A stretch of 64,000 bases of DNA from an uncultured Gammaproteobacteria bacterium (GTDB lineage: Bacteria > Patescibacteriota > Patescibacteriia > Magasanikbacterales > JBBTXJ01). Shown here one piece after another: positions 32,772 to 64,000 of this stretch (positions are counted from its first letter, which is position 1; each line of letters begins with the position of its first letter). Both the position numbers and the translations under genes were made by a program. The notes beneath the pieces are model-generated. The model saw only the letters and a program-made list of their open reading frames with translations. It was not told the origin of the DNA and searched no databases. The DNA lies in the NCBI GenBank assembly GCA_964636345.1, contig CAZWRL010000001.1, positions 235 through 64,234 on the forward strand, in the 5' to 3' direction.

Positions 32772-34469
32772 ATGAAGAAGATAATAGTTATTCTTTTTTT
32801 GTTTCTCCTCTTTCTTCCGTATTTTGGGCGCCCCTTCGCGCTAAATTTGAATCCGGATATGGGACTACAGCTCATGGATGTGTTCCGTATGGTGGATGCG
32901 CGATGGAGTTTTGCGCTTGACCCAAGCGCCGCGTACGCCAATCCACTGGTGCAGATGCTCGTGGATTTTCACGGCGTCTTTCGTCAGCTCATTTACTTTC
33001 CCATTTTTTATATTTTGGATTTGTTTGGCATGGGGATCCGCGAGGCCACCGTGTATGGAACACTCCTTATCGTAGGCGTCGCCCTCACATACCTTAATTA
33101 TATTTTTGCGCGCGTGATAGCAGGGGAGAAAAAAGCGTTTTGGTTTACCGCGCTCCTTTCGGTTATTCCTTTTTATGTGTTGCAAGTGAAAGGCGGGTGG
33201 TGGCATGTGTTTGTGTATCCGTTGCTTTTGGCAGGGCTCGCGGCGGAACACAAATTTTTAACGACCAGAGCCCGGCGATGGTACGCCTGGTTTTGCATCG
33301 CCGCTTCCGCGTATCTGTTAGCCGATACCGGTTTTGTCTTTGGCGGCTTATTGTTTGTGGTATACGCAGTGATATTTTTTTGGCAGGGGAGTAATCTGCG
33401 TGCGGTGCCCGCACATTTGTGGCGGGCCGTACGGAGTCCGTGGACGTTTCTTCCGCTTTTCGTGCTCGCTGGCTCGTTTGTTGTAACGTACATCGGAAAA
33501 ACGCGTTTCGGCGCTGAATTTGGCATCATGGCGCGTTTCTTGGAAAAAGGCGGGCATGTCGGATTTTCTGGGTTCGGTGTTCTCCCGCATTTTATCAGTC
33601 AAGGAATGGGGCTTACGGGTTTTATTCTTTTCCCCGTAATTCTTGCGACCGCTTGTTGGTTTTTGATGCGCGTTTGGCGACAAGAGCGCGATTCGTTACT
33701 TTTAACCTGTATCACTTATTTTTTTGTTACGTTTGTTCTGTTGCTTTTTGCCGGCGGATCAGGCGCGGCGGTGTATGAGTTGTATATTCCTGGTTTGCTA
33801 TTGCTGGTATACGCTTTTTCTCGGCTCAAAAAAGCATGGATACAAAATGTGTTCATGACAGGCATTGCGGCAGTGACGATGATGCAAACGGTGGCATATA
33901 ATTTTGAAATACATCCTCCGCAGTTTCTTGCTCGTTCGTATTCATTCATTCGCCCAAACGATGCCTGTACGGCACTTTGGTGTCCGTGGCATTTTGCAGA
34001 GCCCAAAAATTTAGGCATTACCACGGCCGCATTTGTGTTACGAGATTATCTCGGCATCACGCCGGTTCTCTTTACCTCCATGCAGGAGAATTTTTACGAA
34101 AAACCAAAAGAGATATTTTTTTATAGCAACTACGGGCAAGGGCCGTCCATGAGCATCGGCCGGCGGATTAGTTATGAGGTGAAGGATGTTGCGTCGGCAC
34201 GGATAATACTCGTGTTTGCGCCAGAAGTTTCCGCGCATGCGCCGGGAGCTGTAGAGAAAGAGAAAAATCAGGCAGTGTTGGATTTTCTCGCGGCTCATCC
34301 GGAATATAGAGAAGTGGCAATCGTAACACAGGACGGCGTGGAAATGATAAAAATTTTTGAGCGCGATTCAGCGCGCGCACCACGCGTGTTCTCGGTAGAG
34401 GAATACGATGCCAAGTTCAACGCGCGCTACGGGCATTTGCGGGATATTGGGTTTATTGATTTGGGGTAA
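32772..34469 (+). CDS. GT-C membrane glycosyltransferase (ArnT/PMT-like, GT39/GT83 family)
   Basis: Signal/TM N-terminus, ~11 TM helices then a soluble C-terminal domain. SD gggag before the ATG. Confidence 0.5.
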   Translation: MKKIIVILFLFLLFLPYFGRPFALNLNPDMGLQLMDVFRMVDARWSFALDPSAAYANPLVQMLVDFHGVFRQLIYFPIFYILDLFGMGIREATVYGTLLIVGVALTYLNYIFARVIAGEKKAFWFTALLSVIPFYVLQVKGGWWHVFVYPLLLAGLAAEHKFLTTRARRWYAWFCIAASAYLLADTGFVFGGLLFVVYAVIFFWQGSNLRAVPAHLWRAVRSPWTFLPLFVLAGSFVVTYIGKTRFGAEFGIMARFLEKGGHVGFSGFGVLPHFISQGMGLTGFILFPVILATACWFLMRVWRQERDSLLLTCITYFFVTFVLLLFAGGSGAAVYELYIPGLLLLVYAFSRLKKAWIQNVFMTGIAAVTMMQTVAYNFEIHPPQFLARSYSFIRPNDACTALWCPWHFAEPKNLGITTAAFVLRDYLGITPVLFTSMQENFYEKPKEIFFYSNYGQGPSMSIGRRISYEVKDVASARIILVFAPEVSAHAPGAVEKEKNQAVLDFLAAHPEYREVAIVTQDGVEMIKIFERDSARAPRVFSVEEYDAKFNARYGHLRDIGFIDLG

Positions 34470-34513
34470 TAACGCCATAGGTTGCCCTCTATACCATAGG
34501 ATGATAATATGCT

Positions 34514-35257
34514 ATGTATATGCCAGCTAAATTTATTTTTTCCGAGGATTGGAGCACCGCGAACCGTGCACAGTCCTGGTTAAAGGAGGTTGAACAATAT
34601 GGTAAGAATTCCTATGTTTTGGGTATACTGAATTTAATAGAGGGGTGCAAACCTCGCAGGGTTTTTGATGTTGGGTGTGGCAATGGATTTCCCTTTGCGA
34701 GTAGTTTACTAGAAAAAAACATTGAGGTACATGGTTGCGATCCCTCTCTCTCTCTCTTAAAAGAAGCAACACGGCAGTATCCAGCGCTTCGGTGGTATCA
34801 CACGGGTTACGAGCACATGGTAGAAAAAATTAATGGCGCACGTTACGATGTGGTGTATTGTTTGCGTAGTACGTGGTTATTCCCCAATATTATTTCCGCG
34901 CTTGGGAATATGCTTGAAATTACAAAACCCGGTGGTATAATAATTTTTGATATTATGAATAGTGATTCTCCAGAGATTAGTAAGTTTATAAAAACAATGA
35001 GAAAGAAAAAATATCGTACGTTTTTTAAAAATATTGTTAAACTTGTCCTCAATACAGTAGTGCGTACCAGCTATTCCTATGCTAGTGGCATAGATAAAAA
35101 TTATCCCGTTTCACCAAATCAGGTAGATACCTTTTTGATAAGAAAAAAATTCTTATTTAAGAAGTTTACTTTTAGTCAGATGTCGGGAGAAAATACCAGT
35201 TATGATCCGCTGGCATTTAGGATTTTATATTGCGTACAAGTTCCCGAGAATATTTAA
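34514..35257 (+). CDS. Class I SAM-dependent methyltransferase
   Basis: Motif I VFDVGCGNG; AT-rich gene relative to its surroundings. Confidence 0.55.
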   Translation: MYMPAKFIFSEDWSTANRAQSWLKEVEQYGKNSYVLGILNLIEGCKPRRVFDVGCGNGFPFASSLLEKNIEVHGCDPSLSLLKEATRQYPALRWYHTGYEHMVEKINGARYDVVYCLRSTWLFPNIISALGNMLEITKPGGIIIFDIMNSDSPEISKFIKTMRKKKYRTFFKNIVKLVLNTVVRTSYSYASGIDKNYPVSPNQVDTFLIRKKFLFKKFTFSQMSGENTSYDPLAFRILYCVQVPENI

Positions 35258-36108
35258 CCCCGCACAATCTTTTCCGCCTCTTCCGGTTTTATTTCGTAGA
35301 AGTGTTCGGGTTTGGGGAAGGCGCCCGTGCGCACGTCTTCAACATACGCGCGGAGCGCGAGTGAAATGAGTTGTCCGGCTTCGCAATAACGCTTGACGAA
35401 TTTTGGTTTGAATTGTTCAAACAAGCCAATCATGTCATGGATGATGACGAGTTGACCATCTACGTGGTCACCAGCGCCAATGCCGTAGACGGGTATTCTT
35501 AATTTTCCAGCAATCATGCCTCCGGATTCCGCCGGCATCGCTTCCAACAGCAAGAAATGTGCGCCTGCTTCTTCCAAGGCAAGTGCATCTTCCAAAAGCG
35601 CATCATAACTTTCTTTGGTTTTTCCTTGTACGCGGTAGCCGCCAAATTGCGCCATGTTTTGCGGGGTCAAACCGAGATGTCCCATCACCACAAAACCAGC
35701 ATCAACCATGGCGCGCACGCGGGACGCAACGCGTCGGCCGCCTTCACATTTCACCGCGTCACAGCCCGCTTCTTGAATAAACCGTCCGGCGTTCCGAATG
35801 GCGGTTTCCTCAGACGGTTGATAGCTCATAAAAGGCATGTCGCCCACAATAAACGCGCCTTTGCCTGCGGCGCGCACCACGGCTTTTGAGTGGCTGATCA
35901 TTTCATCCATCGTGACCGGGATGGTGGTTTCATAGCCGAGTGTTGTCATACCGAGTGAATCGCCAACCAAAATCATGTCCACACCCGCGCGGTTCGCCAA
36001 AAGCGCGAGCGGATAATCATACGCGGTGATGTACACCACTTTTTCGCCCTTTTTCTTTTTATCCAGGAGGGTGAGAAGGTTTATTTTTTTGCGTTCTTCA
36101 GTAGACAT
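35254..36108 (-). CDS. panB: 3-methyl-2-oxobutanoate hydroxymethyltransferase (ketopantoate hydroxymethyltransferase)
   Basis: PanB signature YDYPLALLANRAGVDMILVGDSLGMTTLGYETTIPVTMDEMISHSKAV...GDMPFMSY. Confidence 0.75.
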   Translation of the reverse strand: MSTEERKKINLLTLLDKKKKGEKVVYITAYDYPLALLANRAGVDMILVGDSLGMTTLGYETTIPVTMDEMISHSKAVVRAAGKGAFIVGDMPFMSYQPSEETAIRNAGRFIQEAGCDAVKCEGGRRVASRVRAMVDAGFVVMGHLGLTPQNMAQFGGYRVQGKTKESYDALLEDALALEEAGAHFLLLEAMPAESGGMIAGKLRIPVYGIGAGDHVDGQLVIIHDMIGLFEQFKPKFVKRYCEAGQLISLALRAYVEDVRTGAFPKPEHFYEIKPEEAEKIVRG

Positions 36109-36112
36109 ATAG

Positions 36113-37972
36113 TTAGTTTATTTCAGACGACTTTTTCTCGCCGCGACCTTCCAGCGGTTCAATCAGCATGTTGGTATAAAACTCTTCGCGTGGCAAGAAC
36201 GGCGCCATGTCTTCCAAAGGTTTTGAAATATAGCGCCCGTCCGGCAGACGATCGGCAACGAGTTTTGGCACGAGTTTTTGACCGGAATCTAAAATGACAT
36301 CGCAGAGCACTGGGCCGTTCATGTGGAGTACGTTTTGGATGCCGGCGCGCATTTCATCGTGATTGGCGATGGTGATGCCCGGAATACCATACGCCGCGGC
36401 AACACGAATAAAGTCAGGCGTGCTATATCCGCGCCCCGTTGCCTCGTAACGCGAATCAAAATAAATTTCTTGGAATTGTTTGATAATGCCGTAGCCGTGA
36501 TTATTCAAAATAAACATTTTGATTGGCAGATCATGGAAGCGAACCGTTTGCAACTCTTGGATATTGAGTTGAAAACCACCATCGCCATCAATACAGATAA
36601 TGCGTTTCTTTTTGTCCGTGCCAAATGCCGCTCCTATCGCCGCCGGCAGTGCATAGCCCATGGGTGAATTGCCAAAGGTGGAAAAAAGTTGCTGGCCTTC
36701 TTTGACGTGAAATGCCTGCATGGTCCACGTCAGATTGCCGCCCTGGTCAGGAATAATAATGTCATCCGCGCCTAATTCTTGCGACAACGTTTCAATGAAC
36801 GCGTAGGAGTTTACGGTGCCTTGTTGCGCGTAATATTCAGGGAGGACGGTGGGGTAGCGCTGTTTTTGTGTGGCGCAATAGGTTTTCCATTCCGTAAGAT
36901 CCGGCACGCGGATTGCCGGAAGCGCGGCGTAGAGCGCCTGTATAAAATCTTTGGCATCCAGAAGAATGGGCACATCCGCTTTGACACGATGAGACAATAT
37001 GTCACCTTTGAACAATTCTTTTTCGTCGATATCAACAACGATTTTTTTTGCGCCGCGCGCAAACGTTTGTCCTTGCGCGCTCGTTTGGCGCGTATCTAAC
37101 CGCGAACCAATCGCCATCACCAGATCAGCGTTTTGCACGGCAAAATTCGCGGCGCGGTTTCCGTATACGCCGTACTGTTCAACGTAGAGCGGATGGTTGT
37201 GGGGGAGAATATCAATGCCGCTCCAGCTTGCAATCACCGGGATGCCGAGTGCGTCTATCAGCGCGCGAAATTCTTTGGTGGCGCGCGCGAGTTTAATGCC
37301 GCCGCCCGCGATGATGACCGGACGACGCGATTGATTGATCAGCGTCACCACTTCTTGTATTTTTTTTTCAAGCGCATCCGGCGGCGTCAGCACGAGCGGT
37401 TCCGGCGTGTAACCAACCAGGGTGTCGGGATCAATGTCCGCGTGTTGAATGTTGAGTGAAATATCCAAAAGAACCGGTCCGGGACGGCCGCTTTGCGCAA
37501 TAGAGAACGCCTGTTCCAGCACGGCGCGGATTTTTTCCGGCTCCGTAATTTGGTATGCCCATTTGGTGATGGGTTTTGCGATATCCACAATTTCCGTTTC
37601 CTGAAAGCCAAGTTGCCGAACGCCGCTCGTCCCTTTGGTTTCGTGCATATTCACTTGTCCGCACAAGAAAATGCAGGGGATGGAATCAAACCACGCGCAG
37701 CAGATGCCGGTGATGAGATTGGTGGCTCCCGGGCCGCTGGTCACCACGGCCGCGCCCGGTACGCCGGTTACGCGCGCGTACGCCTCGGCCGCCATGGCGC
37801 CGGCCTGTTCGTGATTGACGCAGACGTAATCAATGTCGCGCGTCTTGCGTACCGTGCCGATGGAATCAACAATATGGGCGCATGCGCCGCCCGTGATGAG
37901 GAAGATTTTTTTTATGCCGCGATCGGCCAAAAAGTGAATGAGATAATCGGACAATTTCATACCTTCACACAC
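36113..37972 (-). CDS. Thiamine-diphosphate-dependent enzyme of the acetolactate-synthase large-subunit family; possible YerE-like sugar-branching enzyme
   Basis: TPP motif IDGDGGFQLNIQELQTV...NNHGYG; N-terminal Pyr domain; ~620 aa. Overlaps the adjacent sugar 3-dehydratase gene by 16 nt. Confidence 0.7.
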   Translation of the reverse strand: MCEGMKLSDYLIHFLADRGIKKIFLITGGACAHIVDSIGTVRKTRDIDYVCVNHEQAGAMAAEAYARVTGVPGAAVVTSGPGATNLITGICCAWFDSIPCIFLCGQVNMHETKGTSGVRQLGFQETEIVDIAKPITKWAYQITEPEKIRAVLEQAFSIAQSGRPGPVLLDISLNIQHADIDPDTLVGYTPEPLVLTPPDALEKKIQEVVTLINQSRRPVIIAGGGIKLARATKEFRALIDALGIPVIASWSGIDILPHNHPLYVEQYGVYGNRAANFAVQNADLVMAIGSRLDTRQTSAQGQTFARGAKKIVVDIDEKELFKGDILSHRVKADVPILLDAKDFIQALYAALPAIRVPDLTEWKTYCATQKQRYPTVLPEYYAQQGTVNSYAFIETLSQELGADDIIIPDQGGNLTWTMQAFHVKEGQQLFSTFGNSPMGYALPAAIGAAFGTDKKKRIICIDGDGGFQLNIQELQTVRFHDLPIKMFILNNHGYGIIKQFQEIYFDSRYEATGRGYSTPDFIRVAAAYGIPGITIANHDEMRAGIQNVLHMNGPVLCDVILDSGQKLVPKLVADRLPDGRYISKPLEDMAPFLPREEFYTNMLIEPLEGRGEKKSSEIN

Positions 37973-39180
37973 TGTTCAAGATATTGTTTGATGACGTTTA
38001 ATTCGTAGTCAACCATTTCCTCGGTCAGGCCGTGATTGCATCCGATAATGAAGGTGCGGCGCATAATGGTGTTCGCCCCCGTTAATTCTCCGTGTACGCG
38101 GCAGGCGAGATTTTTATAGGGTTCATGATAAAGAATATTGCCGGTAAAGAGCAGGCGCGTCTGGATGCGATTTTTTTCAAGATACGTTAAGAGATGCCGG
38201 CGCCCAATGGGTGAACTTTCACGAATGGTCACGGGGAAAGCAAGCCAGTACACCGTGGCCTTGGGATGCGACGTTGGCATGATAAAGTGTTCCGGATATT
38301 GCGAGAGGAAGTGGAATATCTTATTGAAATTCCGCATGCGAATGGTGTTGAAATAGGAAAGTTTTTTCAACTGCACCAGTCCAAACGCCGCCTGCATTTC
38401 AACTGGCTTGAAGTTATAGCCGATTTTGACGTGATAGAACTTACCGTCGTAGTCCGTGTCGTCTAATTTGAAATTGAAACGCTGTTCAATGTCTTCATCG
38501 TAGTTTTCTGGCAGGGCGCGTCCCCAGTCGCGGTAGACTTTTGCCGTGCGAATGAGATCAGGATTATTCACCATCACCATGCCGCCACCGCCACCGGCCG
38601 TCATGTTGTGCGAGGCATAGAAACTGGTGGTGGTAATATCTGACCACAGCCCCGGCGGTTTACCGTCATATAAACTGCCGTGCGTGTCGCATGAGTCCTC
38701 AATAAAGAGGAGGCCATATTTGTCACAGAGCGCGCGAATGCGTTCCATGTCATTCATGTTGCCGAGCGCGTGCGAGATAAAAATGGCTTTGGTTTTTGGC
38801 GAGATTGCGGCCTCCAGTTGATCAACGTCAATGTTGTAATTGCCTGGTTTTGAGTCAACAAAAACCGGCGTGTGTCCCTTTACGATAATCGGATTTAATG
38901 TGGCGGGGAAGGTGCAGGCCTGGGTGATAACCTCACAATCGCGCGGGAGGTTCGCAATTTCCATGGCAATTTGATTGGCCGAGGATCCGGAATTAACAAA
39001 AAGGCCGTATTGCTTGCCGAAGAGCGCGGCGATTTTATTTTCAAATTCTTCAGTGAGGCGGCCGGGACCCAGCCAGCCATCTTTCAAGCAGGCCACAACG
39101 GCGTCAATTTCTTCTTGATCAAAGACCGCTTTGGCGTAGAGGACGCGATCGCGACCCGGGACAAACTCCGTAGGGTTCAT
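37957..39180 (-). CDS. DegT/DnrJ/EryC1-family sugar 3-dehydratase (ColD/E1-like; His in place of the PLP lysine)
   Basis: Aminotransferase fold class (FVNSGSSANQIAME) with SFYASHNMTAGGGG, where His occupies the Schiff-base Lys position, the hallmark of 3-dehydratases. Confidence 0.6.
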   Translation of the reverse strand: MNPTEFVPGRDRVLYAKAVFDQEEIDAVVACLKDGWLGPGRLTEEFENKIAALFGKQYGLFVNSGSSANQIAMEIANLPRDCEVITQACTFPATLNPIIVKGHTPVFVDSKPGNYNIDVDQLEAAISPKTKAIFISHALGNMNDMERIRALCDKYGLLFIEDSCDTHGSLYDGKPPGLWSDITTTSFYASHNMTAGGGGGMVMVNNPDLIRTAKVYRDWGRALPENYDEDIEQRFNFKLDDTDYDGKFYHVKIGYNFKPVEMQAAFGLVQLKKLSYFNTIRMRNFNKIFHFLSQYPEHFIMPTSHPKATVYWLAFPVTIRESSPIGRRHLLTYLEKNRIQTRLLFTGNILYHEPYKNLACRVHGELTGANTIMRRTFIIGCNHGLTEEMVDYELNVIKQYLEQCVKV

Positions 39181-56897: not shown

Positions 56898-58452
56898 TCG
56901 TGTTCAACTGAAAAAATGGGGAGGCGCGTTGCTTTTTTGGGGCATCGTTGCCTTGTTGCTGTGTGTCGGCGTACGCGAGCGATCATTTTGGACGGACGAA
57001 TGGTACGCGTTTAAATATTTTGATCGTTCATTCTTTGAATTTCTGAAAGCATACTGGCAGAACCCGGATAATCATCCGCCCGGGTATTATCTGATACTCC
57101 TCGCGTTCATAAAATTATTGGGACGCCATGATTTTGTGGTGCGGTTGCCGTCGCTTCTTGCCGGCTTTGGCGCGCTTATTATGACGTGGCGTATTGCGCG
57201 GTTGATTGCCGGCAGGGATGAGCGTTGGCCGTATTTCGCCGTGCTTCTCGCCGCCACATCGCCGTATCTTATTATTTTGTCACAAACGGCGCGATACTTT
57301 TCACTCGCCGCTTTTTTTGCGCTTTTTGCGATATACACGGTGTTGAAAATTATAACAGGCGGAGAACGGACGTGGTTTTTTGGGTACGCAATCGCGCTTG
57401 TTTTGATTGGCTACGTTGATTACACAACTTTTTTGTATGTGAGTGCGGGGAGTACGCTGGTGATTCTGTTTACGGCATGGCGCGCCAAGAGCAAGCAACT
57501 ACTCATGTACTGGTTGCTTGCGGTGGCCTCTGCGGCGCTGCTCCTTGTGCCGCTTCTTGGAATTGCGCTTGCCAAGGCACAAGCGGAAGCGGCGTATGGC
57601 GGTGATGTATTAACAAGTGGCCCACTTGCGTGGCTCCTTCGTATTGGTATCTACGGATACGCCGCGCTGTATGGTTTTGTGGCATTTCCGTGGGATCTTG
57701 AAGTAACCATTCCGCTTGCGCTTGCGTTTCTGCTTTTGATTATTGTTTGTTTTAGAGATCGCGCAGCGCGCGGGCATTTCTGGCGGAGACCCGAAATAGT
57801 GGTCATCACGGTGATGGGCGTGCTTGCCCTTGTTTTCAATACCGCACTTTTTTCATTTTTGCCGCGTTACACGCCGCTTGCGTATCCGCGGTATGTGAGT
57901 TTTGCGCTGTATCTTTTCTTTCTTCTTTTGGCGGCGCTGGTGTGGTGGATCACGGACAAACGGCGCGGTATTCGTTTGGTGATTATCGTGTTGTTGCTCG
58001 CTACCCCCGCGTGGTCGCTCTTTGATACATTCGGCGTGACTTCTGCGGATCCAACGCTGTTTTCGATGGATAGAAATTTGTATCGCGCCGTGGAGCAGGG
58101 TGATTACATAATGATTAATGATGATTTTCCGCGTGTGATATTTGATTGGTATCGTGAAAAATATTTTGCCAACGTGACACCGCTTGAAACGCCGCCGAAT
58201 CAATCATTTTTTGAGAGCGGGAAGCGGCTCTGGGTGATTGGCTATGGATATGATGATCGCGATGGGTTCCGCGCGCCACGACAAAAAGCGGAGGATATTA
58301 CCGAGCCGCTTGGGGACGCGGTACGGGTTATTGAAAAGGGTTACGGGCCATCCATTGATTCAGAGCTTCGCGCGTTCAAAAAACGGCTCACCGGTCATGA
58401 TACCTACGAACACAAAATTGGGTTATTTTTAATCACGGCGGCGGACAAGTAA
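56884..58452 (+). CDS. GT-C membrane glycosyltransferase (ArnT/PMT_2-like)
   Basis: ~12 TM helices; PMT_2-like N-terminus (TDEWYAF...HPPGYYLILLAF). Confidence 0.5.
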   Translation: MQTPNRVQLKKWGGALLFWGIVALLLCVGVRERSFWTDEWYAFKYFDRSFFEFLKAYWQNPDNHPPGYYLILLAFIKLLGRHDFVVRLPSLLAGFGALIMTWRIARLIAGRDERWPYFAVLLAATSPYLIILSQTARYFSLAAFFALFAIYTVLKIITGGERTWFFGYAIALVLIGYVDYTTFLYVSAGSTLVILFTAWRAKSKQLLMYWLLAVASAALLLVPLLGIALAKAQAEAAYGGDVLTSGPLAWLLRIGIYGYAALYGFVAFPWDLEVTIPLALAFLLLIIVCFRDRAARGHFWRRPEIVVITVMGVLALVFNTALFSFLPRYTPLAYPRYVSFALYLFFLLLAALVWWITDKRRGIRLVIIVLLLATPAWSLFDTFGVTSADPTLFSMDRNLYRAVEQGDYIMINDDFPRVIFDWYREKYFANVTPLETPPNQSFFESGKRLWVIGYGYDDRDGFRAPRQKAEDITEPLGDAVRVIEKGYGPSIDSELRAFKKRLTGHDTYEHKIGLFLITAADK

Positions 58453-59321
58453 TGTATCGTATGTTCACCTGCGTTGTATGTCATGGCACTGCCCATAGTG
58501 CGTATCACGCCAAGAAAAATTTTGATATTTTTGTGTGTGATGACTGCGACACGCTCCGCATACATCCCCTGCCCACCAAAGAGCAGTTAGACCGCGCGTA
58601 TGGCGCGGGATATTTTATGGGCGACGCCACCTGCGATGGGTACATGGATTATGAGTTTGAAAAGGAAGTGACACGGCGGACATTTGAGGAACATCTTGAT
58701 GATATTGAGGCATATCAAGCGCCCGGTGAGTTATTTGAGGTGGGCGCGGCGACCGGTTATTTTTTGTCACTCGCGCGCGAGCGCGGATGGCGTGTTGCTG
58801 GCGTTGATTATTCATCCTACGCGGCGGCGCGGGCGCAAGAAAAGGGCATTCCGGTTGCGGCGGGCGGAGTGCAAGCGCTTGCAGAGAGCGAGAACCGGTA
58901 TGATGTGATCGCGCTTTTTGACGTGATTGAACACCTTTTGTACCCAGAAGAAGAACTGGCGCAGATGGTGCGCGCGCTCAAACCCGGCGGGCTCTTGGTG
59001 TTTGCAACTCCGGATCGTTCAAGCGTATTTGCCCGCTTGACAGGCAGGTTTTGGCATGCCATTGTTCCTCCACAGCATGTGTTTTTATTTGGATCAAAAA
59101 CGATTGATCAATTGTTGCGGCGGCACGGCCTTACGGTACTTGAAAAATCGCGTCCGGGCAAATGGTTCACCGTGCAATATCTGTTTCGCGCGCTGTATAC
59201 GTGGCTTGGCTTTCGTTTTTTATACACGTTTGCTGAACGTGTCGCCCACACCCGTTTTGGCCGTTTCGCATTCCCGCTTAATGTGCGCGATACGATGTTC
59301 GTGATTGCGCGAAAAGTATGA
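58452..59321 (+). CDS. Class I SAM-dependent methyltransferase with an N-terminal Cys4 zinc ribbon
   Basis: CVVCHG...CDDCDT, then motif I LFEVGAATGYF. Confidence 0.6.
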   Translation: MYRMFTCVVCHGTAHSAYHAKKNFDIFVCDDCDTLRIHPLPTKEQLDRAYGAGYFMGDATCDGYMDYEFEKEVTRRTFEEHLDDIEAYQAPGELFEVGAATGYFLSLARERGWRVAGVDYSSYAAARAQEKGIPVAAGGVQALAESENRYDVIALFDVIEHLLYPEEELAQMVRALKPGGLLVFATPDRSSVFARLTGRFWHAIVPPQHVFLFGSKTIDQLLRRHGLTVLEKSRPGKWFTVQYLFRALYTWLGFRFLYTFAERVAHTRFGRFAFPLNVRDTMFVIARKV

Positions 59322-60427
59322 TTGTCCTCAACATCAACAAATTGTACGCGCCCGCCATTGGCGGTGTTGAAACCGTGGTGCAACAACTGGCGGAGGGTTT
59401 TATGTTGCAGGGTCATTCGCGGGTGCTGGTGGTGCGCGATGGTTTTGGTTTTGGCGCGACTGAACAAAAGAACGGCGTTATCGTGCGACGCGCGGGGAGT
59501 GTGGGGCGTGTGCGTTCTATGCCGGTTTCGTTTTCTTTCATCTATTGGCTTTGGAAAGAAAGTAAAACCGCGGACGTGTTGCATGTTCACTATCCCTTTC
59601 CGCTTGCCGCGTTTGCGTTGTGGCTTGCGCGACCCAAAAAGCCGCTCATCATTACGTGGCATAGTTCCGTGGTGCGCCAGCGGTTGTTGAATTTTTTTGT
59701 ACAGCCGTTTGTGCGTTGGACACTCGCGCGCGCGGAAAAAATTGTGGTGACGTTTCCAAACGCGGTATCGTATTTTAAGGAACTCGCGCCGTTCCGTGAA
59801 AAATGTGTCGTGGTGCCCCTCGGCATTGATCTGACAAAAGCGCAGTCGGAAACACCGAATGTTGTATTTCCGGATCGCGAGTGTCCAACATTCGTCTTTG
59901 TGGGGCGTTTTATTTATTACAAAGGATTGCCGGAACTGGTGACTGCGTTTGCCGCTGTGCCACGCGGCACCTTGTATTTAGTGGGCGATGGTCCCATGCG
60001 GCGTAAAATTGCACGTCTCATTGCATGCAAAGGTCTTTCCGCGCGCGTAAAAATTATTGCAACGCGTGATGACAAGACACTTCGTTTTTATCTTGGCGCG
60101 GCTGATGTGGTTGTTTTCCCGTCAACGCAACCATCGGAAGTGTTTGGGTTGGTTCAACTTGAGGCAATGGCGACCGGCAAACCCATTATCAATACCGCGC
60201 TTCCAACCGGCGTGCCGTGGGTTGCGCGCCATGAGCAGGAGGCGCTCACGGTGCCGCCGGGTGATGTGTCGGCGCTCGCACGTGCCGTGGAACTGCTTGG
60301 AAATGACGCGGCGCTGCGCGCTCGTTTAGGGCAGGCGGGCAGGGAACGGGTAGCGCAGGAATTCACGCTTGCCAACATGCGGGCCGCGTATTATGATCTC
60401 TACCACTATGTCAGCTCTCAAAGATAA
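59318..60427 (+). CDS. GT4 (GT-B fold) glycosyltransferase
   Basis: EVFGLVQLEAMATGKPII (E-x7-E motif). Confidence 0.7.
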   Translation: MIVLNINKLYAPAIGGVETVVQQLAEGFMLQGHSRVLVVRDGFGFGATEQKNGVIVRRAGSVGRVRSMPVSFSFIYWLWKESKTADVLHVHYPFPLAAFALWLARPKKPLIITWHSSVVRQRLLNFFVQPFVRWTLARAEKIVVTFPNAVSYFKELAPFREKCVVVPLGIDLTKAQSETPNVVFPDRECPTFVFVGRFIYYKGLPELVTAFAAVPRGTLYLVGDGPMRRKIARLIACKGLSARVKIIATRDDKTLRFYLGAADVVVFPSTQPSEVFGLVQLEAMATGKPIINTALPTGVPWVARHEQEALTVPPGDVSALARAVELLGNDAALRARLGQAGRERVAQEFTLANMRAAYYDLYHYVSSQR

Positions 60428-61217
60428 ACGCGTGGGTGTGATGGGCGCCGGCATGGTTGGCGGCGCGCTCATCAAGTATTTTGAAAAGAAAAAATGTAAT
60501 TTTGTCATCTACGATCCGCCAAAGGGTTTTGCGGATGCGGGCGCGTTGAATACCGCGGAGGTGGTTTTTGTGTGTGTTCCAACGCCGTTTGATGAGCGAT
60601 TAGGGTTTGATTTGAGTTACGTGCGGCAGGCGCTCTCCACGCTGACGGGTGAAAAAATTGTCGTGCTCAAATCAACGGTGGTTCCGGGCACCACCGCGCG
60701 ATTGCAAAAGGAATTTCCACAGCATCGCCTGTGTTACAATCCGGAATTTTTGACCGAAGTGACGGCTGATCAAGATTTCGCGTTTCCGGATAGGCAAATT
60801 TTAGGATACACGGAGCGGAGTTTTGGCATCGCGAAAGATATTATTTTGCTCATGCCGCAGGCGCCGTTTGAGCGCATCGTTCCGTCCACGGCGGCGGAAA
60901 TGATTAAGTATTTTGGCAATACGTGGTTTTCCACCAAAGTGGTGTTCGCAAACCAGATGTACGATTTGTGTCAAAAACTCGGTGTGGAGTATGACACGGT
61001 GAAAGACGCGGTGGCGGCGGATAAACGCATCGGGCCGACGCATTTGGAGATATTGCATGACGGCTATCGCGGGTACGGCGGCAAGTGTTTGCCAAAAGAT
61101 ACCCGCGCGCTCATTCAGTTGGGAGATACGCTGGGCGCGGAGTTGGAGCTTTTGAAAATGGTGGAGTATATTAATAATCAGTTGGTTAAGCAATCAGAAT
61201 TAGATCGTGATCGTTAA
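60408..61217 (+). CDS. Short UDP-glucose/GDP-mannose dehydrogenase-family protein (~270 aa; appears to lack the C-terminal UDP-binding domain)
   Basis: VGVMGAGMVGG Rossmann motif and GGKCLPKD catalytic Cys. Confidence 0.5.
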   Translation: MSALKDKRVGVMGAGMVGGALIKYFEKKKCNFVIYDPPKGFADAGALNTAEVVFVCVPTPFDERLGFDLSYVRQALSTLTGEKIVVLKSTVVPGTTARLQKEFPQHRLCYNPEFLTEVTADQDFAFPDRQILGYTERSFGIAKDIILLMPQAPFERIVPSTAAEMIKYFGNTWFSTKVVFANQMYDLCQKLGVEYDTVKDAVAADKRIGPTHLEILHDGYRGYGGKCLPKDTRALIQLGDTLGAELELLKMVEYINNQLVKQSELDRDR

Positions 61218-61219: not shown

Positions 61220-62128
61220 ATGCGCTATCTCGTCACCGGCGGGGCCGGATTTATTGGAACGAATATCGTGGAAGCGCTTTTGGCGCGCAATGATAGTGTT
61301 TGTATTCTTGATGATTTTTCAACCGGCAAACGCGAACGTGTGCCGGTTGTGGCGGAATTGATTGAAGGCACCATCACAAATCTTGAAACATGTCGGCGCG
61401 CCTGCGCGGGAGTTGATGGCGTATTTCATACCGCCGCTCTCGCTCGCATGCCGCGCTCCATTGAAGACCCCATCGGCACCAATGACGCCAACGTGAACGG
61501 CACGCTCAATATGCTCGTTGCCGCGCGCGATGCCGGCGTGAAGCGGTTTGTGTTTAGCGGTTCGTCATCCGTGTACGGCGTGCAAGACACCCTGCCTCTG
61601 AAAGAAGACATGAAGCCGCGACCGGGCAATCCGTACGCGCTCCAGAAACTCGCGGGAGAAGAGTATTGCCGGCTCTTTTGGGAGTTGTTTCAATTTCCAA
61701 CCGTGACGTTGCGGTATTTCAATGTGTACGGCGGCAAGTATCAGACCACGGATGGCGCGTACGCGCTCGTGTTCGGGATTTTTATCAGGCAGAAACGCGC
61801 CGGTGAACCATTAACACTTTGTGGCGACGGTGAATATCGCCGAGATTTTACTCATGTTGACGATGTCGTCCGCGCGAATCTTTTGGCAATGGACGGCGCG
61901 ACGGTTGGCCACGGCGAGATTATCAATATCGGAGCGGGGGATAACCACACCGTTAAAGCGTTGGCCGCGCTGGTAGGCGGGGAGACAGTGTTTATTCCGC
62001 CGCGTCCGGGCGATGCGCGGGATTCATTGGCTGATCGCGCACGCGCCAAAGAGCTTTTGGGCTGGGAGCCGATGGTTCCCTTTGAAGACGGCGTGCGCGG
62101 GACGCTCACCTTCATGGGTCTTGCGTGA
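61220..62128 (+). CDS. NAD-dependent epimerase/dehydratase (extended SDR; UDP-sugar epimerase/decarboxylase-like)
   Basis: YLVTGGAGFIGTNIV; YALQK motif. Confidence 0.7.
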   Translation: MRYLVTGGAGFIGTNIVEALLARNDSVCILDDFSTGKRERVPVVAELIEGTITNLETCRRACAGVDGVFHTAALARMPRSIEDPIGTNDANVNGTLNMLVAARDAGVKRFVFSGSSSVYGVQDTLPLKEDMKPRPGNPYALQKLAGEEYCRLFWELFQFPTVTLRYFNVYGGKYQTTDGAYALVFGIFIRQKRAGEPLTLCGDGEYRRDFTHVDDVVRANLLAMDGATVGHGEIINIGAGDNHTVKALAALVGGETVFIPPRPGDARDSLADRARAKELLGWEPMVPFEDGVRGTLTFMGLA

Positions 62129-62150
62129 CGCAACGAAATATACCGTGTTT

Positions 62151-62846
62151 TTACCGTAACCGCCACCCAATGCGGAGGGCTTCCAGAATCATTTTTTTTG
62201 AGAATTTTGAGTAGCCGTTGTAGCGGTCGCGGAAGATGATCGGGATTTCAGCAAAACGGGCTCCGGCGCGATGAGCATGATGCTTCATTTCAATTTGAAA
62301 ACCATAGCCGTCGGATTGGATCGCGTGAAAGGGGATGTGTTCCAGCACGTGCCGGCGGTACCCCACAAAACCACCCGTGATGTCGAGGATTGGGAGACGG
62401 GTCAGCGTGCGGGCATAGGTATTGGCGGCGCGGGAGATCAGTTTTCGGTGCCAGGAAAAGTTAGAAATGTCACCACCCGGCACATAGCGGGAGCCGATGA
62501 CGACATCGTTATCCAAGAGCGCGCTCATGAGCGCGGGAAGATACTGCGGGTGGTGCGAAAGATCCGCATCCATTTCAAAGACGGCTTCAGTTGCCGGATC
62601 AGCAAGCGCTACTTTGAATCCCTCAATGTATGATTGCGCAAAACTGCGTGGATTGGTGCGGCGAATAACGGCTACGCGCGGATGAACACTAAAAGTGTTC
62701 ATGACGATATCCGCGGTGCCATCTGGCGACTGGTCATCAACAATGAGCAGGCGAACGTCTTCCGGCGCATGACGAAAAATTTCTTCAATGGTTCCGAGAA
62801 TTGATTCCGCTTCGTTGTAAGTTGGTATGACGATGGTTGTTTTCAT
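62151..62846 (-). CDS. GT2 polyprenol-phosphate glycosyltransferase (DPM1-like)
   Basis: TIVIPTYNEAESI...LLIVDDQSPDGT...EMDADLSH. Confidence 0.7.
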   Translation of the reverse strand: MKTTIVIPTYNEAESILGTIEEIFRHAPEDVRLLIVDDQSPDGTADIVMNTFSVHPRVAVIRRTNPRSFAQSYIEGFKVALADPATEAVFEMDADLSHHPQYLPALMSALLDNDVVIGSRYVPGGDISNFSWHRKLISRAANTYARTLTRLPILDITGGFVGYRRHVLEHIPFHAIQSDGYGFQIEMKHHAHRAGARFAEIPIIFRDRYNGYSKFSKKMILEALRIGWRLR

Positions 62847-64000
62847 CTTCCCATTGCTTTAACAATAATATGTAGGGTCTTGAGGACAATCACGAGGTCA
62901 AGCAGGAGCGAACGGTGTTTCATGTAAAAGAGATCATACTCAAGTTTTACCAAACTTTCGTCAAGCGTTGCGCCGTATCGGTAACTGATCTGTGCCCAGC
63001 CGGTGATGCCCGGCCGTAACAAGTGACGGATGCTGTAAAACGGCGCGCGTTCTTGTAGTTGCTCAACAAACTCCGGGCGTTCCGGCCGCGGACCAATAAG
63101 ATTCATGTCGCGGCGCAAGATATTCCACACCTGCGGCAATTCATCAATACGGAAACGGCGGAGCCATTTACCGATGCGCGTGACGCGTCGGTCATTCACC
63201 TGGGTAAATTGCGCGCCGCTGGTTTCTGCCAGGCCGCTCTTATTTTGTACGTACATGGTGCGGAGTTTCACAATGGGGAATATCTTATTATTGTATCCCA
63301 CGCGTGTTTGTTTGATGAAAACCGGCCGGCCGGATTCTATGATAATCGCGAGCGCCACAAAGGGGAAGAGCGCGAGAAAAACGATCCCCAAGAGCAGTGC
63401 GATGAGAATGTCAAAGATGGTGCGCGCGGCATCGTAATACTGTTTGCGACTTTCGCGGAGATTCTGTACAAACCACGCTTCGGTTAACATGTCGCGGTTC
63501 ACGCGGCCGGTGACCGCCTCATAAAATGACGCGAGATCCGCCATTTCCACGCGCCAAAACAGGAGTTCGTATAATTCTTTTTCCAGTTCCAGGGTGCGCA
63601 TGAGCGCGGGCGAGATCACCACCATGTGTATTTCTTTAATATCAACGACCGCGCGAATGCGCAGTGGGTCAGTGAAACATTCCACCATTGCTTGTATATT
63701 TTTTGGGATGTTGTCATGGTTCGGATCAACAATCGCGGCCGTGGTGAAGCCAATCTGCGGATCATTCGCGAAGATGGTGACCAATTCTTCTAAACGCGGA
63801 TGATAGCCAAGAAACAGAATACTGCGGCGCAAGAGCGCGGGTCCCAAGAGCCAGTTAAAGAGCGCGCGCCAGAGCGAGACCAAGACGGTGGCAAGGAGCA
63901 CCACCAGAATAAGATTGGTTTTAGGCGTGATGCGAAACGCGGGAATAAAATAAAAAAAGGCCAGTCCGAGGAAAAAATTGACCAGGAAACTCAACGAGAT
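62843..64000 (-). CDS. Initiating polyprenyl-phosphate sugar-phosphate transferase (WbaP/PglC 'bacterial sugar transferase' family); N-terminus lies beyond the window
   Basis: C-terminal catalytic domain (RPVFIKQTRVGYNNKIFPIVKLRTM...DELPQVWNILRRDMNLIGPRPERPEF); the ORF runs off the window end. Confidence 0.7.
   Translation of the reverse strand: MSLSFLVNFFLGLAFFYFIPAFRITPKTNLILVVLLATVLVSLWRALFNWLLGPALLRRSILFLGYHPRLEELVTIFANDPQIGFTTAAIVDPNHDNIPKNIQAMVECFTDPLRIRAVVDIKEIHMVVISPALMRTLELEKELYELLFWRVEMADLASFYEAVTGRVNRDMLTEAWFVQNLRESRKQYYDAARTIFDILIALLLGIVFLALFPFVALAIIIESGRPVFIKQTRVGYNNKIFPIVKLRTMYVQNKSGLAETSGAQFTQVNDRRVTRIGKWLRRFRIDELPQVWNILRRDMNLIGPRPERPEFVEQLQERAPFYSIRHLLRPGITGWAQISYRYGATLDESLVKLEYDLFYMKHRSLLLDLVIVLKTLHIIVKAMGR

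Follow-up and report, generated by a model that had tools for sequence, protein, structure and literature searches.

A large glycan locus of a Patescibacteria bacterium with an unrecognised GT-C family and a probable branched-deoxysugar module

We analysed a stretch of DNA of 64,000 nt (the window) from a Patescibacteria metagenome-assembled genome, close to Magasanikbacteria/Uhrbacteria, and confirmed that the region past 32.7 kb is a genuine cell-surface sugar locus, of more than 31 kb, of this ultra-small (CPR) bacterium. With a probability of roughly 0.6, it is a two-route cell-envelope glycan locus in which an acyl-branched 3,6-dideoxyhexose branch is delivered on a lipid carrier.

Extent, gene content and composition of the locus

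The 30 kb upstream of the locus contain unrelated housekeeping and T4SS-like genes, and the locus runs on for at least 5 kb beyond the window end. Its gene set and three GT-C enzymes, all located from 32.7 kb to the end of the window, bear out the glycan locus of around 31 kb proposed in a previous, sequence-only reading. Pfam identified seven glycosyltransferases: five GT2, which are GT2a (39187–40134, minus strand), GT2b (40961–41683, plus), two Leloir-type enzymes (48193–49134 and 53271–54017, both plus) and GT2e (62151–62846, minus), and two of type GT4/GT1 (about 55806–56897 and 59318–60427, both plus). This is the number of GT2/GT4 enzymes previously proposed, although the two DPM1-like enzymes then listed as additional are included in the same seven. 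Profile matches likewise agreed with the Wzx flippase, WbaP-like initiating transferase, epimerases and dehydrogenases of that reading, and the locus also codes for methyltransferases, with five methyltransferase domains in all; the SDR epimerase/dehydratases number three, and two genes encode UDP-sugar dehydrogenases.

The polyprenyl glycosylphosphotransferase of the WbaP/WcaJ class (about 62843–64000, minus strand; Bac_transf) has its N-terminus beyond the window end; on the longer JGI contig L007 it comprises 446 aa and exceeds the TIGR03025 cut-off (321.5 against 295.55). The Wzx-type flippase is Polysacc_synt/MatE/MurJ-like (about 51736–53274, plus; start as in the JGI gene call), and an AsnB-type glutamine amidotransferase (54019–55809, plus; Asn_synthase and GATase_7, start as in the gene call; TIGR01536, 417.7 against 267.1) is a candidate for uronic-acid amidation. 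The plus strand also carries genes for an FkbM-family methyltransferase (44533–45276), 85 % identical in relative L005, an SDR epimerase/dehydratase (49138–50073), a SAM methyltransferase (58452–59321), a short nucleotide-sugar dehydrogenase-like protein (60393–61217) with the Rossmann and central domains and the catalytic Cys but lacking the C-terminal UDP-binding domain, and a TviC/GalE-like UDP-(N-acetyl)hexuronic acid or hexose 4-epimerase (61220–62128). A bona fide glutamine-dependent NAD+ synthetase, NadE (50076–51734, plus), previously overlooked, passes the NF010588 equivalog (694.6 against 479), occupies an identical position in L005 and is probably a housekeeping enzyme whose gene lies inside the locus.

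As previously noticed, the locus is a compositional mosaic: the GC content of 28 genes averages 50.6 % (sd 3.7), whereas it drops to 37.4 % in gene 34514–35257 and to 43.6–47.2 % in the block 45283–49134, with 44.1 % for the GT2 gene at 48193–49134. The low-GC genes coincide exactly with cassettes absent in relatives. The gene at 34514–35257 (plus), an insertion cassette for a SAM methyltransferase (Methyltransf_23/12/25/11), is missing from relatives L004 and L005, and that for a 2OG-Fe(II) oxygenase (45283–46074, plus; 2OG-FeII_Oxy_3; 43.6 % GC) is missing from L005. The product of the following gene (46016–48232, plus) joins a UDP-sugar 6-dehydrogenase and a SAM methyltransferase in one protein, and its counterpart in the relative is the dehydrogenase alone (432 aa; 64 % identity across 429 aa).

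The fragment 32507–32735 (plus), which lies upstream of the first GT-C gene, possibly specifies a leader or small RNA. Besides a promoter-like sequence (TTGACA-18-TATGGT, 32507–32536), it contains a long hairpin and another, at 32696–32720, that resembles an intrinsic terminator and comes with a T run, and its fold energy is -96.4 kcal/mol (z -7.95). An Rfam search with this fragment gave no match, and comparison with two relatives showed 96 % nucleotide identity, with a run of ca. 170 nt at 100 %, against 80–85 % in the flanking coding DNA.

Lipid-carrier glycosyltransferases and three GT-C enzymes

GT2a, from the first gene of a minus-strand operon, is a polyprenyl-phosphate glycosyltransferase of the GtrB/ArnC/PgfS type, with full-length alignments to GtrB sll0501 (5ekp, 240 bits) and ArnC (141 bits), 246 bits with the PgfS model and two C-terminal TM helices. 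GT2b is a soluble DPM1-like enzyme whose best PDB matches are, in this order, the P. furiosus Dol-P-Man synthase 5mlz, ArnC and GtrB, with weak PgfS/ArnC/AglJ/PpgS matches; its gene lies directly upstream of those for an epimerase and the YfhO-type GT-C. GT2e, also soluble and DPM1/AglJ/PpgS-like, shows weak likeness to AglJ/ArnC/PpgS.

The three proteins previously proposed as PMT/ArnT/YfhO-like GT-Cs all have the GT-C fold, although one of them fails the PMT/ArnT/YfhO profiles. This is the product of 32772–34469 (plus; 565 aa), a GT-C glycosyltransferase by fold, whose N-terminal part is polytopic and whose C-terminal domain, of ca. 180 aa, is conserved and extracytoplasmic. Pfam and PDB sequence searches with this protein returned no match; its family, an unrecognised one among GT-Cs, has 12 members in 1.84e9 representatives, with D29, R39 and D42 invariant, and its distant relatives are borderline PMT_2/STT3. 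The second (42622–44529, plus) is of the YfhO/DUF6044 type, above the Pfam gathering score, with a C-terminal beta-rich domain, an AF2 pLDDT of 82.6, D31 invariant and D34 nearly so. The third (56884–58452, plus) is a PMT_2 (ArnT/PMT-like) enzyme (35.2 bits, GA 26.1) with at least eight hydrophobic segments and an FWTDEW motif after TM1. Acidic residues are conserved in the first extracytoplasmic loop of the three: D29/D42, D31/D34 and FWTDEW, respectively.

The adjacency of GtrB/ArnC/DPM1-type GT2s to three GT-C fold enzymes supports the proposed lipid-carrier-mediated glycosylation at the membrane's outer face. This GT2 and GT-C architecture, shared by the locus, defines multi-component transmembrane glycosylation systems (review PMC8035078). 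In two lineages (loci L082 and L083), a homolog of the new GT-C (44–50 % identity) abuts a protein in which a transketolase-type ThDP enzyme is fused to a GT2a homolog (53–54 % identity over the full length). Such adjacency, found in only five lineages for a family too small for statistics, suggests that the new GT-C pairs with GT2a.

Since neither Wzy_C/WaaL nor LPS core genes were found anywhere in the window, the locus does not match the canonical O-antigen cluster against which the glycosylation proposal had been set. Patescibacteria are not known to have an outer membrane.

A probable module for a branched deoxysugar

A group of genes at 35.2–42.6 kb, including those for a 3-dehydratase, a YerE-like ThDP enzyme and PanB, was overlooked in the sequence-only reading. 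The DegT-family protein 37957–39180 (minus) is a PMP-dependent NDP-4-keto-6-deoxyhexose 3-dehydratase of the E1/ColD type and not an aminotransferase: its best PDB match is E1 (3bcx, 278 bits), and it has a His at the position of E1 His220, the site marked by the H220K mutant 3bb8. This His is kept in all six CPR orthologs, whereas other aminotransferases of those loci retain Lys. Unlike E1, the protein lacks the Fe-S cysteine stretch, and its score with the RfbH model (397.8 bits) is below the cut-off of 423.

The ThDP-dependent carboligase (36113–37972, minus) has three TPP domains, an intact GDG...NN motif and best PDB matches to 8rph, which is the YerE-like enzyme JanthE (PMC12188165), and 5ahk (379 bits); likeness to JanthE is only about 419 bits, and JanthE itself has no known physiological substrate. 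Annotated elsewhere as acetolactate synthase-like, the enzyme falls below every AHAS equivalog cut-off and matches AHAS structures with at most 300 bits, lower than JanthE. Among 25 metagenome loci with the ThDP enzyme, 13 contain E1-like genes and 16 a GT2a homolog, directly adjoining the ThDP enzyme in 11. Many CPR loci have a GtrB/ArnC-type GT2 right beside the ThDP enzyme, and in other CPR loci the module is neighboured by genes for GT-Cs (PMT_2, YfhO) or unclassified polytopic proteins.

The PanB-type 2-oxoacid hydroxymethyltransferase (35254–36108, minus) shows 98/94 % amino acid and 90/85 % nucleotide identity to those of its relatives. A plain role in pantoate synthesis is possible for it, because it passes the strict panB equivalogs (323 against 207.55; 349.6 against 272), and NadE indicates that housekeeping genes do occur in this locus. 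Its subclade adjoins ThDP-enzyme homologs in five phyla: the four closest PanBs (64–73 % identity; Chloroflexi, Omnitrophota, Patescibacteria and Prochlorococcus) and one from Lachnospiraceae all abut such a homolog, found beside ordinary PanB in none of 37 loci. PanB (KPHMT) produces 3-substituted 4-hydroxy-2-oxoacids in vitro (PMC11331486).

Two further enzymes would complete the acyl-branched pathway considered here. A classical SDR (40191–40964, plus; adh_short), candidate side-chain ketoreductase in the role of YerF, shares synteny with the module in a further 11 loci (including L004, L005, L011, L012, L057–L060, L071 and L075). An extended SDR (41664–42635, plus; Epimerase/GDP_Man_Dehyd), NDP-hexose 4,6-dehydratase-like, has LegB-type and dTDP-glucose 4,6-dehydratase as top models and keeps its synteny in L004 and L005. 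An Omnitrophota operon has the order NTP-transferase, 3-dehydratase-like, 4,6-dehydratase, ThDP enzyme, PanB, reductase and GtrB-like GT2; no nucleotidyltransferase for the branched sugar was found within the window. In the published scheme, acyl-branched sugars depend on a 4-hydroxy-2-oxoacid supplied by an aldolase, together with a YerE-like enzyme, a reductase and 3,6-dideoxy-4-keto sugar genes (PMC9306805, PMC12247030). The 3-dehydratase, ThDP enzyme, PanB, SDR and dehydratase-like enzyme together fit a pathway to an acyl-branched 3,6-dideoxyhexose, and one branch most likely carries a sugar of this kind.

Two proposed routes to the cell envelope

Gene content suggests a first route in which oligosaccharide assembly would begin with the WbaP/WcaJ-type phosphotransferase acting on polyprenyl phosphate, continue with extension by Leloir-type GT2/GT4 enzymes and be followed by outward flipping by Wzx; genes of the Wzy, LCP or oligosaccharyltransferase type were not identified for this route. 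Its sugars would include uronic acids (Ugd, TviC-like epimerase), probably amidated by the AsnB-type enzyme and methylated by several methyltransferases. In the second, a multi-component transmembrane glycosylation route, the GtrB/ArnC/DPM1-type GT2s would load single sugars onto polyprenyl phosphate and, after the flip, the three GT-Cs (new family, YfhO/DUF6044 and PMT_2) would pass them to an extracytoplasmic acceptor, perhaps a protein, the S-layer or a wall polymer. There is no GtrA-type flippase in the window; this step must fall to Wzx or to a gene located elsewhere.

Substrates are assigned here entirely from homology and neighbourhood. The 4,6-dehydratase-like SDR and the His-type 3-dehydratase would produce an NDP-4-keto-3,6-dideoxyhexose, the nucleotide being likewise putative, to which the YerE/JanthE-like enzyme would attach an acyl branch. 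The branch would derive from a 2-oxoacid, probably one that the adjacent PanB hydroxymethylates in this lineage. After reduction of the branch by the SDR, GT2a would load the sugar onto the lipid carrier, from which the new-family GT-C would transfer it to the acceptor. The locus offers an unrecognised GT-C family and a module whose probable role is to make a rare branched deoxysugar and to deliver it extracellularly on a lipid carrier.

Gene content and mosaic structure of the glycan locus

ORF listing together with Pfam and NCBIfam scans revealed a tightly packed gene block running from 32.7 kb to the end of the window, whose gene content confirms the glycan locus first noticed from the sequence alone. 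The block opens on the plus strand with genes for a polytopic protein without profile match (32772-34469; candidate 1) and a methyltransferase (34514-35257), followed by a minus-strand operon coding for PanB (35254-36108), a three-domain ThDP enzyme (36113-37972), a DegT-family protein (37957-39180) and the glycosyltransferase GT2a (39187-40134). A plus-strand run then starts with an SDR, the glycosyltransferase GT2b (40961-41683), an epimerase/dehydratase (41664-42635), a DUF6044/YfhO protein (42622-44529; candidate 2), an FkbM methyltransferase and a 2OG oxygenase; continues with a UDP-sugar dehydrogenase-methyltransferase fusion, a GT2, an epimerase, NadE, Wzx, another GT2, an AsnB-type amidotransferase and a GT4; and ends with a PMT_2 protein (56884-58452; candidate 3), a methyltransferase, a GT4, a short dehydrogenase-like protein and a TviC-like epimerase. 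The last two genes, on the minus strand, code for a DPM1-like GT2 (GT2e, 62151-62846) and for a Bac_transf phosphoglycosyltransferase that extends past the window end. A JGI contig with the same genes (L007) shows that the locus continues further (L007:13134-18479), adding a subtilisin-like S8 peptidase with a faint FG-GAP match, an epimerase, a PpgS-like GT2 with a small DUF2304 membrane protein, and a GT4. The sequence-only reading had recognized the glycosyltransferase, flippase and GT-C parts of this inventory, which stand, but it overlooked a branched-deoxysugar module composed of a 3-dehydratase, the ThDP enzyme and PanB. Homologs of candidate 1, of the YfhO-type protein and of PanB originate from Patescibacteria MAGs, named as Candidatus Magasanikbacteria (GCA_016204305.1), Candidatus Uhrbacteria and "Patescibacteria group".

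Gene-by-gene identity to two relatives ranged from 47 % (YfhO-type protein) to 98 % (PanB), and several genes were absent from these relatives: the methyltransferase at 34514-35257, the 2OG oxygenase, GT2b and the methyltransferase half of the dehydrogenase fusion. The low-GC stretches, at 34514-35257 (37.4 %) and 45283-49134 (43.6-47.2 %, against a mean of 50.6 %), coincide with genes lacking in the relatives, although GT2b, also absent from them, is an exception with 54.1 % GC. The compositional mosaic already perceived in the sequence thus corresponds to variable cassettes around a conserved core. Within the low-GC block, the gene at 46016-48232 codes for a UDP-sugar 6-dehydrogenase fused to a SAM methyltransferase domain, whereas a relative has the dehydrogenase alone. 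Another gene (60393-61217) codes for a nucleotide-sugar dehydrogenase-like protein of ca. 270 aa that lacks the C-terminal UDP-binding domain; a frameshifted pseudogene was considered, but its start, Rossmann motif and catalytic Cys (GGKCLPKD) are intact and there is no space for a C-terminal domain before the next gene. NadE (50076-51734), in the middle of the locus, passes the strict equivalog for glutamine-dependent NAD+ synthetase, and a relative has it at the corresponding position. It probably serves a housekeeping function, although it may, less probably, act as an amidotransferase of the glycan pathway.

Unrelated genes fill the first 30 kb of the window: they code for GlpX, CofD, BipA, a TraG/VirB4-like ATPase, large proteins without match and two tRNA-Ser, the only matches that an Rfam scan of the whole window returned. 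In this part, two paralogous predicted lipoproteins with a MopE-type metal-binding motif (1557-2315 and 3590-4348, both minus strand) are 64 % identical overall, their first ca. 130 residues being nearly identical and their C-terminal halves diverged. On both sides of the gene for the TraG/VirB4-like P-loop ATPase (15122-17197) lie genes for large proteins (927, 434, 249 and 188 aa) that gave no Pfam match, and the region 9887-17769 might correspond to a pilus-like or type IV secretion apparatus. The gene directly upstream of the locus codes for a VanW and PG_binding_4 protein (30481-32475), found in the same position, with 86 % identity, in a Magasanikbacteria relative.

The intergenic region between this VanW gene and the gene of candidate 1 (32476-32735) is more conserved than the surrounding genes, showing 96 % DNA identity to two relatives (L004:6894-7165 and L056:13560-13830, minus strand), with a run of ca. 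170 nt at 100 %, versus 80-85 % for the flanking coding DNA. Its features are a promoter-like sequence (TTGACA-18-TATGGT), a long and almost perfect hairpin (-96.4 kcal/mol, z -7.95) and, 52 nt before the ATG, a second, strong hairpin of the terminator kind with a T run. Rfam returned chance-level matches for this element (best E 0.18), which was found in three lineages alone among the 83 loci fetched for comparison. It could represent the gene of a small RNA (ca. 185 nt) or else a leader, of attenuator type, for the GT-C gene. An 82-aa ORF upstream of candidate 1 overlaps the element, is non-hydrophobic and is probably not a gene.

Lipid-carrier glycosyltransferases, GT-C enzymes and their acceptor

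GT2a could be aligned over its full length to GtrB (5ekp, 240 bits; residues 6-307 versus 27-329) and matched ArnC with 141 bits; two TM segments (235-253 and 267-285) follow its GT-A domain at the C-terminal end. The best NCBIfam model was PgfS, but GT2a missed the equivalog scores of named members (245.9 bits versus 500 for PgfS; 147.6 versus 529 for ArnC). These comparisons place GT2a in the polyisoprenyl-phosphate glycosyltransferase class (GtrB/ArnC/CsbB type), as an ortholog of neither PgfS nor ArnC. GT2b and GT2e are soluble DPM1/AglJ/PpgS-like enzymes, and the PpgS-like GT2 that has a small membrane partner, encoded just past the window end, is a further candidate.

Three GT-C candidates accompany these enzymes, all of which the sequence-only reading had assigned to the PMT/ArnT/YfhO type. 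This assignment holds for two of them: candidate 2 exceeds the gathering score of the YfhO/DUF6044 Pfam profile and has a GT-C fold, and candidate 3 scores 35.2 bits with PMT_2 (GA 26.1) and carries, immediately after TM1, the acidic motif FWTDEW in its translation, its class assignment being based on Pfam and this motif. A literature search for DUF6044 gave no papers. Candidate 1, in turn, fails all sequence profiles: Pfam at E ≤ 10 and a PDB sequence search gave no match, leaving it outside the described GT-C sequence families. Nevertheless, it is a polytopic membrane protein whose fold matches that of solved GT-C enzymes, with residues D29, D42 and R39, in the first extracytoplasmic loop directly after TM1, invariant across 12 sequences. 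A profile search among 1.84 billion representatives retrieved 46 proteins at E ≤ 1e-3, of which 12 reached E ≤ 1e-30, and candidate 1 was linked to known families only transitively, the distant matches (E 1e-12 to 1e-8) being borderline PMT_2/STT3 proteins. Candidate 1 thus represents a very rare branch of the ArnT/PMT-type GT-C enzymes that has diverged strongly.

The coexistence of three GT-C enzymes with three to four candidate polyprenyl-phosphate GT2s is the architecture found in multi-component transmembrane glycosylation systems (PMC8035078), and thus supports, at the level of mechanism class, the earlier interpretation of lipid-carrier-mediated glycosylation at the membrane's outer side. 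The arrangement would work as in the Gram-positive three-component systems CsbB/GtcA/YfhO, GtlA/GtlB, GacI-J-K-L and Csd pairs: the polyprenyl-P-sugar would be made by a GT-A that is either soluble or membrane-linked and, after a flippase, a GT-C with an acidic outer-loop motif would carry out the transfer, with several GT-A/GT-C pairs possible per genome (PMC8035078). The GacI/GacJ pair is mirrored by the PpgS-like GT2 and the DUF2304 protein just past the window end. Unlike in those systems, the host here belongs to the Patescibacteria, one GT-C is in no described family, one donor is a predicted acyl-branched deoxysugar instead of Glc, Gal or GlcNAc, and the locus has no GtrA-type flippase, as none was detected among ORFs of 70-200 aa with at least three hydrophobic segments in the window. 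Wzx-type flippases are, however, accepted for some multi-component systems (PMC8035078). The PpgS-like GT2 followed by a small DUF2304 protein, with GT-Cs in the same locus, also resembles the mycobacterial PpgS system, but the enzyme scores below the PpgS equivalog cut-off (145 versus 370 bits) and the host phylum differs. The mycobacterial system comprises PpgS (Rv3631), Rv3632 and Rv3779 and decorates arabinogalactan with galactosamine; its NCBIfam model is NF058614.

Besides these pairs, the locus contains the start of a Wzx/Wzy-dependent assembly pathway, with an initiating phosphoglycosyltransferase (Bac_transf/TIGR03025) and Wzx (Polysacc_synt/MatE). Among the scanned window genes there was no Pfam match to a Wzy polymerase, a chain-length regulator or a ligase (WaaL/Wzy_C, LCP), Wzy proteins being divergent, and no OTase-type gene for a Wzx-flipped oligosaccharide was recognized in the window.

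It is possible, and we propose it only tentatively, that the GT-Cs O-glycosylate surface or membrane proteins, such as S-layer proteins, pilins or Ser/Thr-rich regions, and not a wall polysaccharide or teichoic-acid-like polymer. The similarity of GT2a to PgfS favors a protein acceptor, because the streptococcal Pgf pathway combines PgfS with PgfM1 and PgfM2, YfhO-type GT-Cs that glycosylate proteins outside the membrane (bioRxiv 10.1101/2024.05.05.592596). The Pgf cluster of Streptococcus mutans (PgfS, PgfE, PgfM1, PgfM2) likewise groups a PgfS-like GT2, an epimerase and YfhO-type GT-Cs, and the match of candidate 3 to a protein mannosyltransferase-like profile, together with the lack of Wzy and LCP polymer genes in the window, points in the same direction. 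However, the PgfS score is far under the cut-off, and members of the YfhO and PMT_2 families also act on LTA, WTA and wall polysaccharides (PMC8035078). Additionally, the locus is far larger than that of S. mutans and has a Wzx-dependent arm, which would itself provide a glycan acceptor, and no adhesin or protein with a Ser/Thr-rich region is encoded, in real frames, in the window or just beyond.

A predicted module for acyl-branched deoxysugars

The ThDP enzyme contains three TPP domains and the GDG...NN motif. Although its best NCBIfam matches were AHAS models, it fell below every AHAS equivalog cut-off (430 versus 538 for TIGR00118), and the best PDB matches were JanthE (8rph, 419 bits) and 5ahk (379 bits), which we take to be the structure of PpYerE, with true AHAS reaching at most 300 bits. 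By these matches it is a YerE/JanthE-like carboligase, predicted to accept ketones (keto-sugars). According to a review, structures exist for both PpYerE and JanthE, the latter being a YerE-like ketone-accepting carboligase without a known natural substrate (PMC12188165). A literature search combining YerE with CPR names ranked at the top papers without YerE.

The DegT-family protein (37957-39180) had the 3-dehydrase E1 as its best PDB match (278 bits). Its sequence FYASHNMT aligns with FYPAHHIT of E1, placing a His where aminotransferases have a Lys, in the column of E1 His220 as fixed by the wild-type (3bcx) and H220K mutant (3bb8) structures. This His was kept in the six CPR orthologs (6/6) that flank the ThDP enzyme, whereas the second aminotransferases of the same loci keep the Lys. 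The cysteines of the E1-specific [2Fe-2S] motif, presumably C-X57-C-X-C-X7-C, are missing from the protein (CyCapgCdntC of E1 aligns with al--penydedie), indicating that it is not an E1 ortholog; its chemistry would be ColD-like and independent of a reductase, judging from these residues.

The gene for the ThDP enzyme is clustered with those for this His-type 3-dehydratase, an SDR and a dehydratase-like SDR, an association that recurs in CPR loci and in an Omnitrophota operon, and this set of neighbors fits the published scheme for acyl-branched sugars, which requires a 3,6-dideoxy-4-keto sugar, a YerE-like enzyme, a reductase and an aldolase for the 4-hydroxy-2-oxoacid donor (PMC9306805, PMC12247030). 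As in the pathways of yersiniose (YerE/YerF), erwiniose (ErwE/ErwF/ErwI/ErwJ), caryophyllose (MMAR_2332) and gastriose (MyGE), an E1-type 3-dehydratase adjoins a three-domain ThDP carboligase and a reductase, next to an enzyme able to make a 4-hydroxy-2-oxoacid donor and with SAM methyltransferases nearby (PMC9306805, PMC12247030). There are three differences from the known pathways: these use a pyruvate aldolase where the present locus has a PanB-type hydroxymethyltransferase as predicted donor enzyme, the E1 Fe-S cysteines are missing from the dehydratase here, and the glycosyltransferase that follows is a GtrB/ArnC-type polyprenyl-phosphate transferase and not a Leloir enzyme acting on an Und-PP-glycan. 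The window contains no nucleotidyltransferase for the branched sugar.

PanB passes the two curated panB equivalogs (TIGR00222, 323.2 bits over 207.55; NF001452, 349.6 over 272), and enzymes of this kind (KPHMT) are used in biocatalysis to make 3-substituted 4-hydroxy-2-oxoacids (PMC11331486). In a scan of one genome per GTDB species, with the flanks checked by tblastn, the four PanBs nearest to that of the window (64-73 % identity), which belong to Chloroflexi, Omnitrophota, Patescibacteria and Prochlorococcus, and one from Lachnospiraceae (57 %) each directly adjoined a homolog of the ThDP enzyme inside sugar operons (L014, L015, L016, L017 and L021), versus none of the 37 other PanB loci. 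The ThDP enzyme from Prochlorococcus also has JanthE as its closest match, and the Omnitrophota operon contains, in this order, a nucleotidyltransferase, an E1-like DegT protein, a 4,6-dehydratase, the ThDP enzyme, PanB, a reductase-type SDR and a GtrB-like GT2. No paper linking PanB with YerE clusters was found in a literature search. With respect to the two relatives, the PanB protein is 98 % and 94 % identical and its DNA 90 % and 85 %, which indicates strong purifying selection; the proteins encoded around it show 55-85 % identity to the same relatives.

These data bear on whether PanB and the ThDP enzyme might simply belong to ordinary metabolism, that is, to pantoate synthesis and to an ilvB-like acetolactate synthase, present in the locus by chance and making no branched sugar. 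The panB equivalogs, the AHAS models as best matches of the ThDP enzyme and the housekeeping nadE embedded in the same locus, here and in a relative, would agree with this. We nonetheless regard it as unlikely, because the ThDP enzyme is under all AHAS cut-offs and closer to JanthE, because ilvN, ilvC, ilvD, panC, panD and panE were not found among the window genes scanned, and because the PanB subclade lies beside such a ThDP enzyme in sugar operons of five phyla and is under purifying selection inside this locus. Furthermore, a His-type 3-dehydratase and a GtrB-type GT2 flank the ThDP enzyme in most of the 25 metagenome loci compared: the dehydratase was present in 13, and a GT2a homolog in 16, directly adjoining the ThDP gene in 11.

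Since the DegT-family protein belongs to the DegT_DnrJ_EryC1 family and GT2a aligns over its full length with ArnC, we also considered an Arn-like operon, in which an aminotransferase would make a 4-amino sugar, an ArnC-like GT2 load it onto undecaprenyl phosphate and an ArnT-like GT-C transfer it; the locus also has UDP-sugar dehydrogenases and decarboxylase-like SDRs. There is a parallel: in the Arn pathway, which adds L-Ara4N to lipid A, an unusual sugar is likewise built on a nucleotide, handed to undecaprenyl phosphate by a GT2 whose C-terminal end has TM helices, and transferred outside by a GT-C. However, the DegT-family protein has a His in place of the catalytic Lys, a feature of the E1 and ColD dehydratases, which led us to reject an aminotransferase or Arn enzyme, and it scores 397.8 bits with the RfbH model (cut-off 423) versus ca. 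130 bits with ArnB models. With GtrB a much better match to GT2a than ArnC, and no formyltransferase (ArnA), deformylase (ArnD) or ArnE/F genes in the locus, this option is very improbable; moreover, lipid A, the Arn acceptor, is not expected in Patescibacteria. Finally, a canonical Gram-negative O-antigen or LPS cluster, which Wzx, the WbaP-like initiating transferase and the many glycosyltransferases and sugar-modifying enzymes could evoke, can be discarded, because the 64-kb window contains no Wzy_C/WaaL, Wzz or LPS core/lipid A gene (WaaL and LPS core genes nearby being what the sequence-only reading had named as evidence against itself), the close homologs are all from Patescibacteria MAGs, and Patescibacteria are not known to have an outer membrane.

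Recurrence of the module and of the new GT-C family

Homologs of the ThDP enzyme with at least 50 % identity occur commonly in MAGs of the Yanofsky-, Doudna-, Parcu- and Paceibacteria type, and in several loci the acyl-branched deoxysugar module is accompanied by PMT_2- or YfhO-type GT-Cs, or by unclassified polytopic proteins of 550-720 aa. HMMs from A1 and A2, and jackhmmer with candidate 3, identified GT-Cs near the module only in loci L056 and L071, the GT-Cs being too divergent for these searches, and they were finally sought with Pfam on polytopic ORFs.

The homologs of candidate 1 in comparison loci L082 and L083 (44-50 % identity) adjoin a fusion of a transketolase-type ThDP protein with a GT2 (L082:7667-10494, L083:7693-9582), composed of Transket_pyr, Transketolase_C and a GT2 domain, the last of these matching GT2a along its entire length with 53-54 % identity. 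In L082 the fusion is preceded by a Transketolase_N gene, whereas the L083 contig ends there; L082 also contains the dehydratase (77 % identity) and a second GT2a. In locus L081, the neighbors of the candidate 1 homolog (42 % identity) are a sugar C-methyltransferase, a nucleotidyltransferase and a 4,6-dehydratase. Members of the new GT-C family thus occur together with genes for branched-chain deoxysugars, representing three different chemistries, and with a GtrB-type GT2, which was found near them in five of six lineages. Based on this gene neighborhood, candidate 1 is a putative user of a polyprenyl-phosphate-linked sugar donor at the membrane's outer side.

The most far-reaching interpretation of these data, to which we assign a probability of roughly one in three with all its parts included, is that Patescibacteria and some Omnitrophota, Chloroflexi and cyanobacteria carry an undescribed route for rare branched sugars. 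In this route, a His-type 3-dehydratase and a YerE-like ThDP enzyme would produce an acyl-branched 3,6-dideoxyhexose, whose side chain would come, in one subclade, from a 2-oxoacid made by a dedicated PanB paralog. The sugar would be loaded onto polyprenyl phosphate not by a cytoplasmic Leloir enzyme but by a GtrB-type GT2, fused in some lineages to the ThDP branching enzyme, and would be transferred by GT-Cs outside the membrane, including a profile-invisible GT-C family dedicated to branched deoxysugars. Both multi-component transmembrane glycosylation and acyl-branched sugar biosynthesis are systems of known kinds, present here in a new form; what appears to be novel, from computation, is the unrecognized GT-C family, the PanB/YerE-like cassette and the use, as predicted, of a polyprenyl-monophosphate carrier to deliver a branched sugar.

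The new GT-C family is invisible to Pfam and NCBIfam and was always found with branched-deoxysugar genes. The cassette of 3-dehydratase, YerE-like enzyme, SDR and GtrB-type GT2, widespread in CPR, predicts acyl-branched sugars that travel through a lipid-monophosphate carrier, and we know of no such delivery route described for them. The YerE-linked PanB subclade, present in five phyla, extends the aldolase-based "unifying scheme" for acyl-branched sugars, and hints at what the physiological donors of JanthE-type enzymes may be. Genes annotated in CPR genomes as "Acetolactate synthase", "panB" or "DegT aminotransferase" may be misread as belonging to amino-acid or vitamin metabolism. Members of the CPR/Patescibacteria have genomes of ca. 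1 Mb and live attached to host cells, and their surface chemistry is, to our knowledge, essentially unknown. For genomes of this size, more than 36 kb dedicated to surface glycans is a large investment, and the locus is a likely determinant of host attachment or of phage/host recognition.
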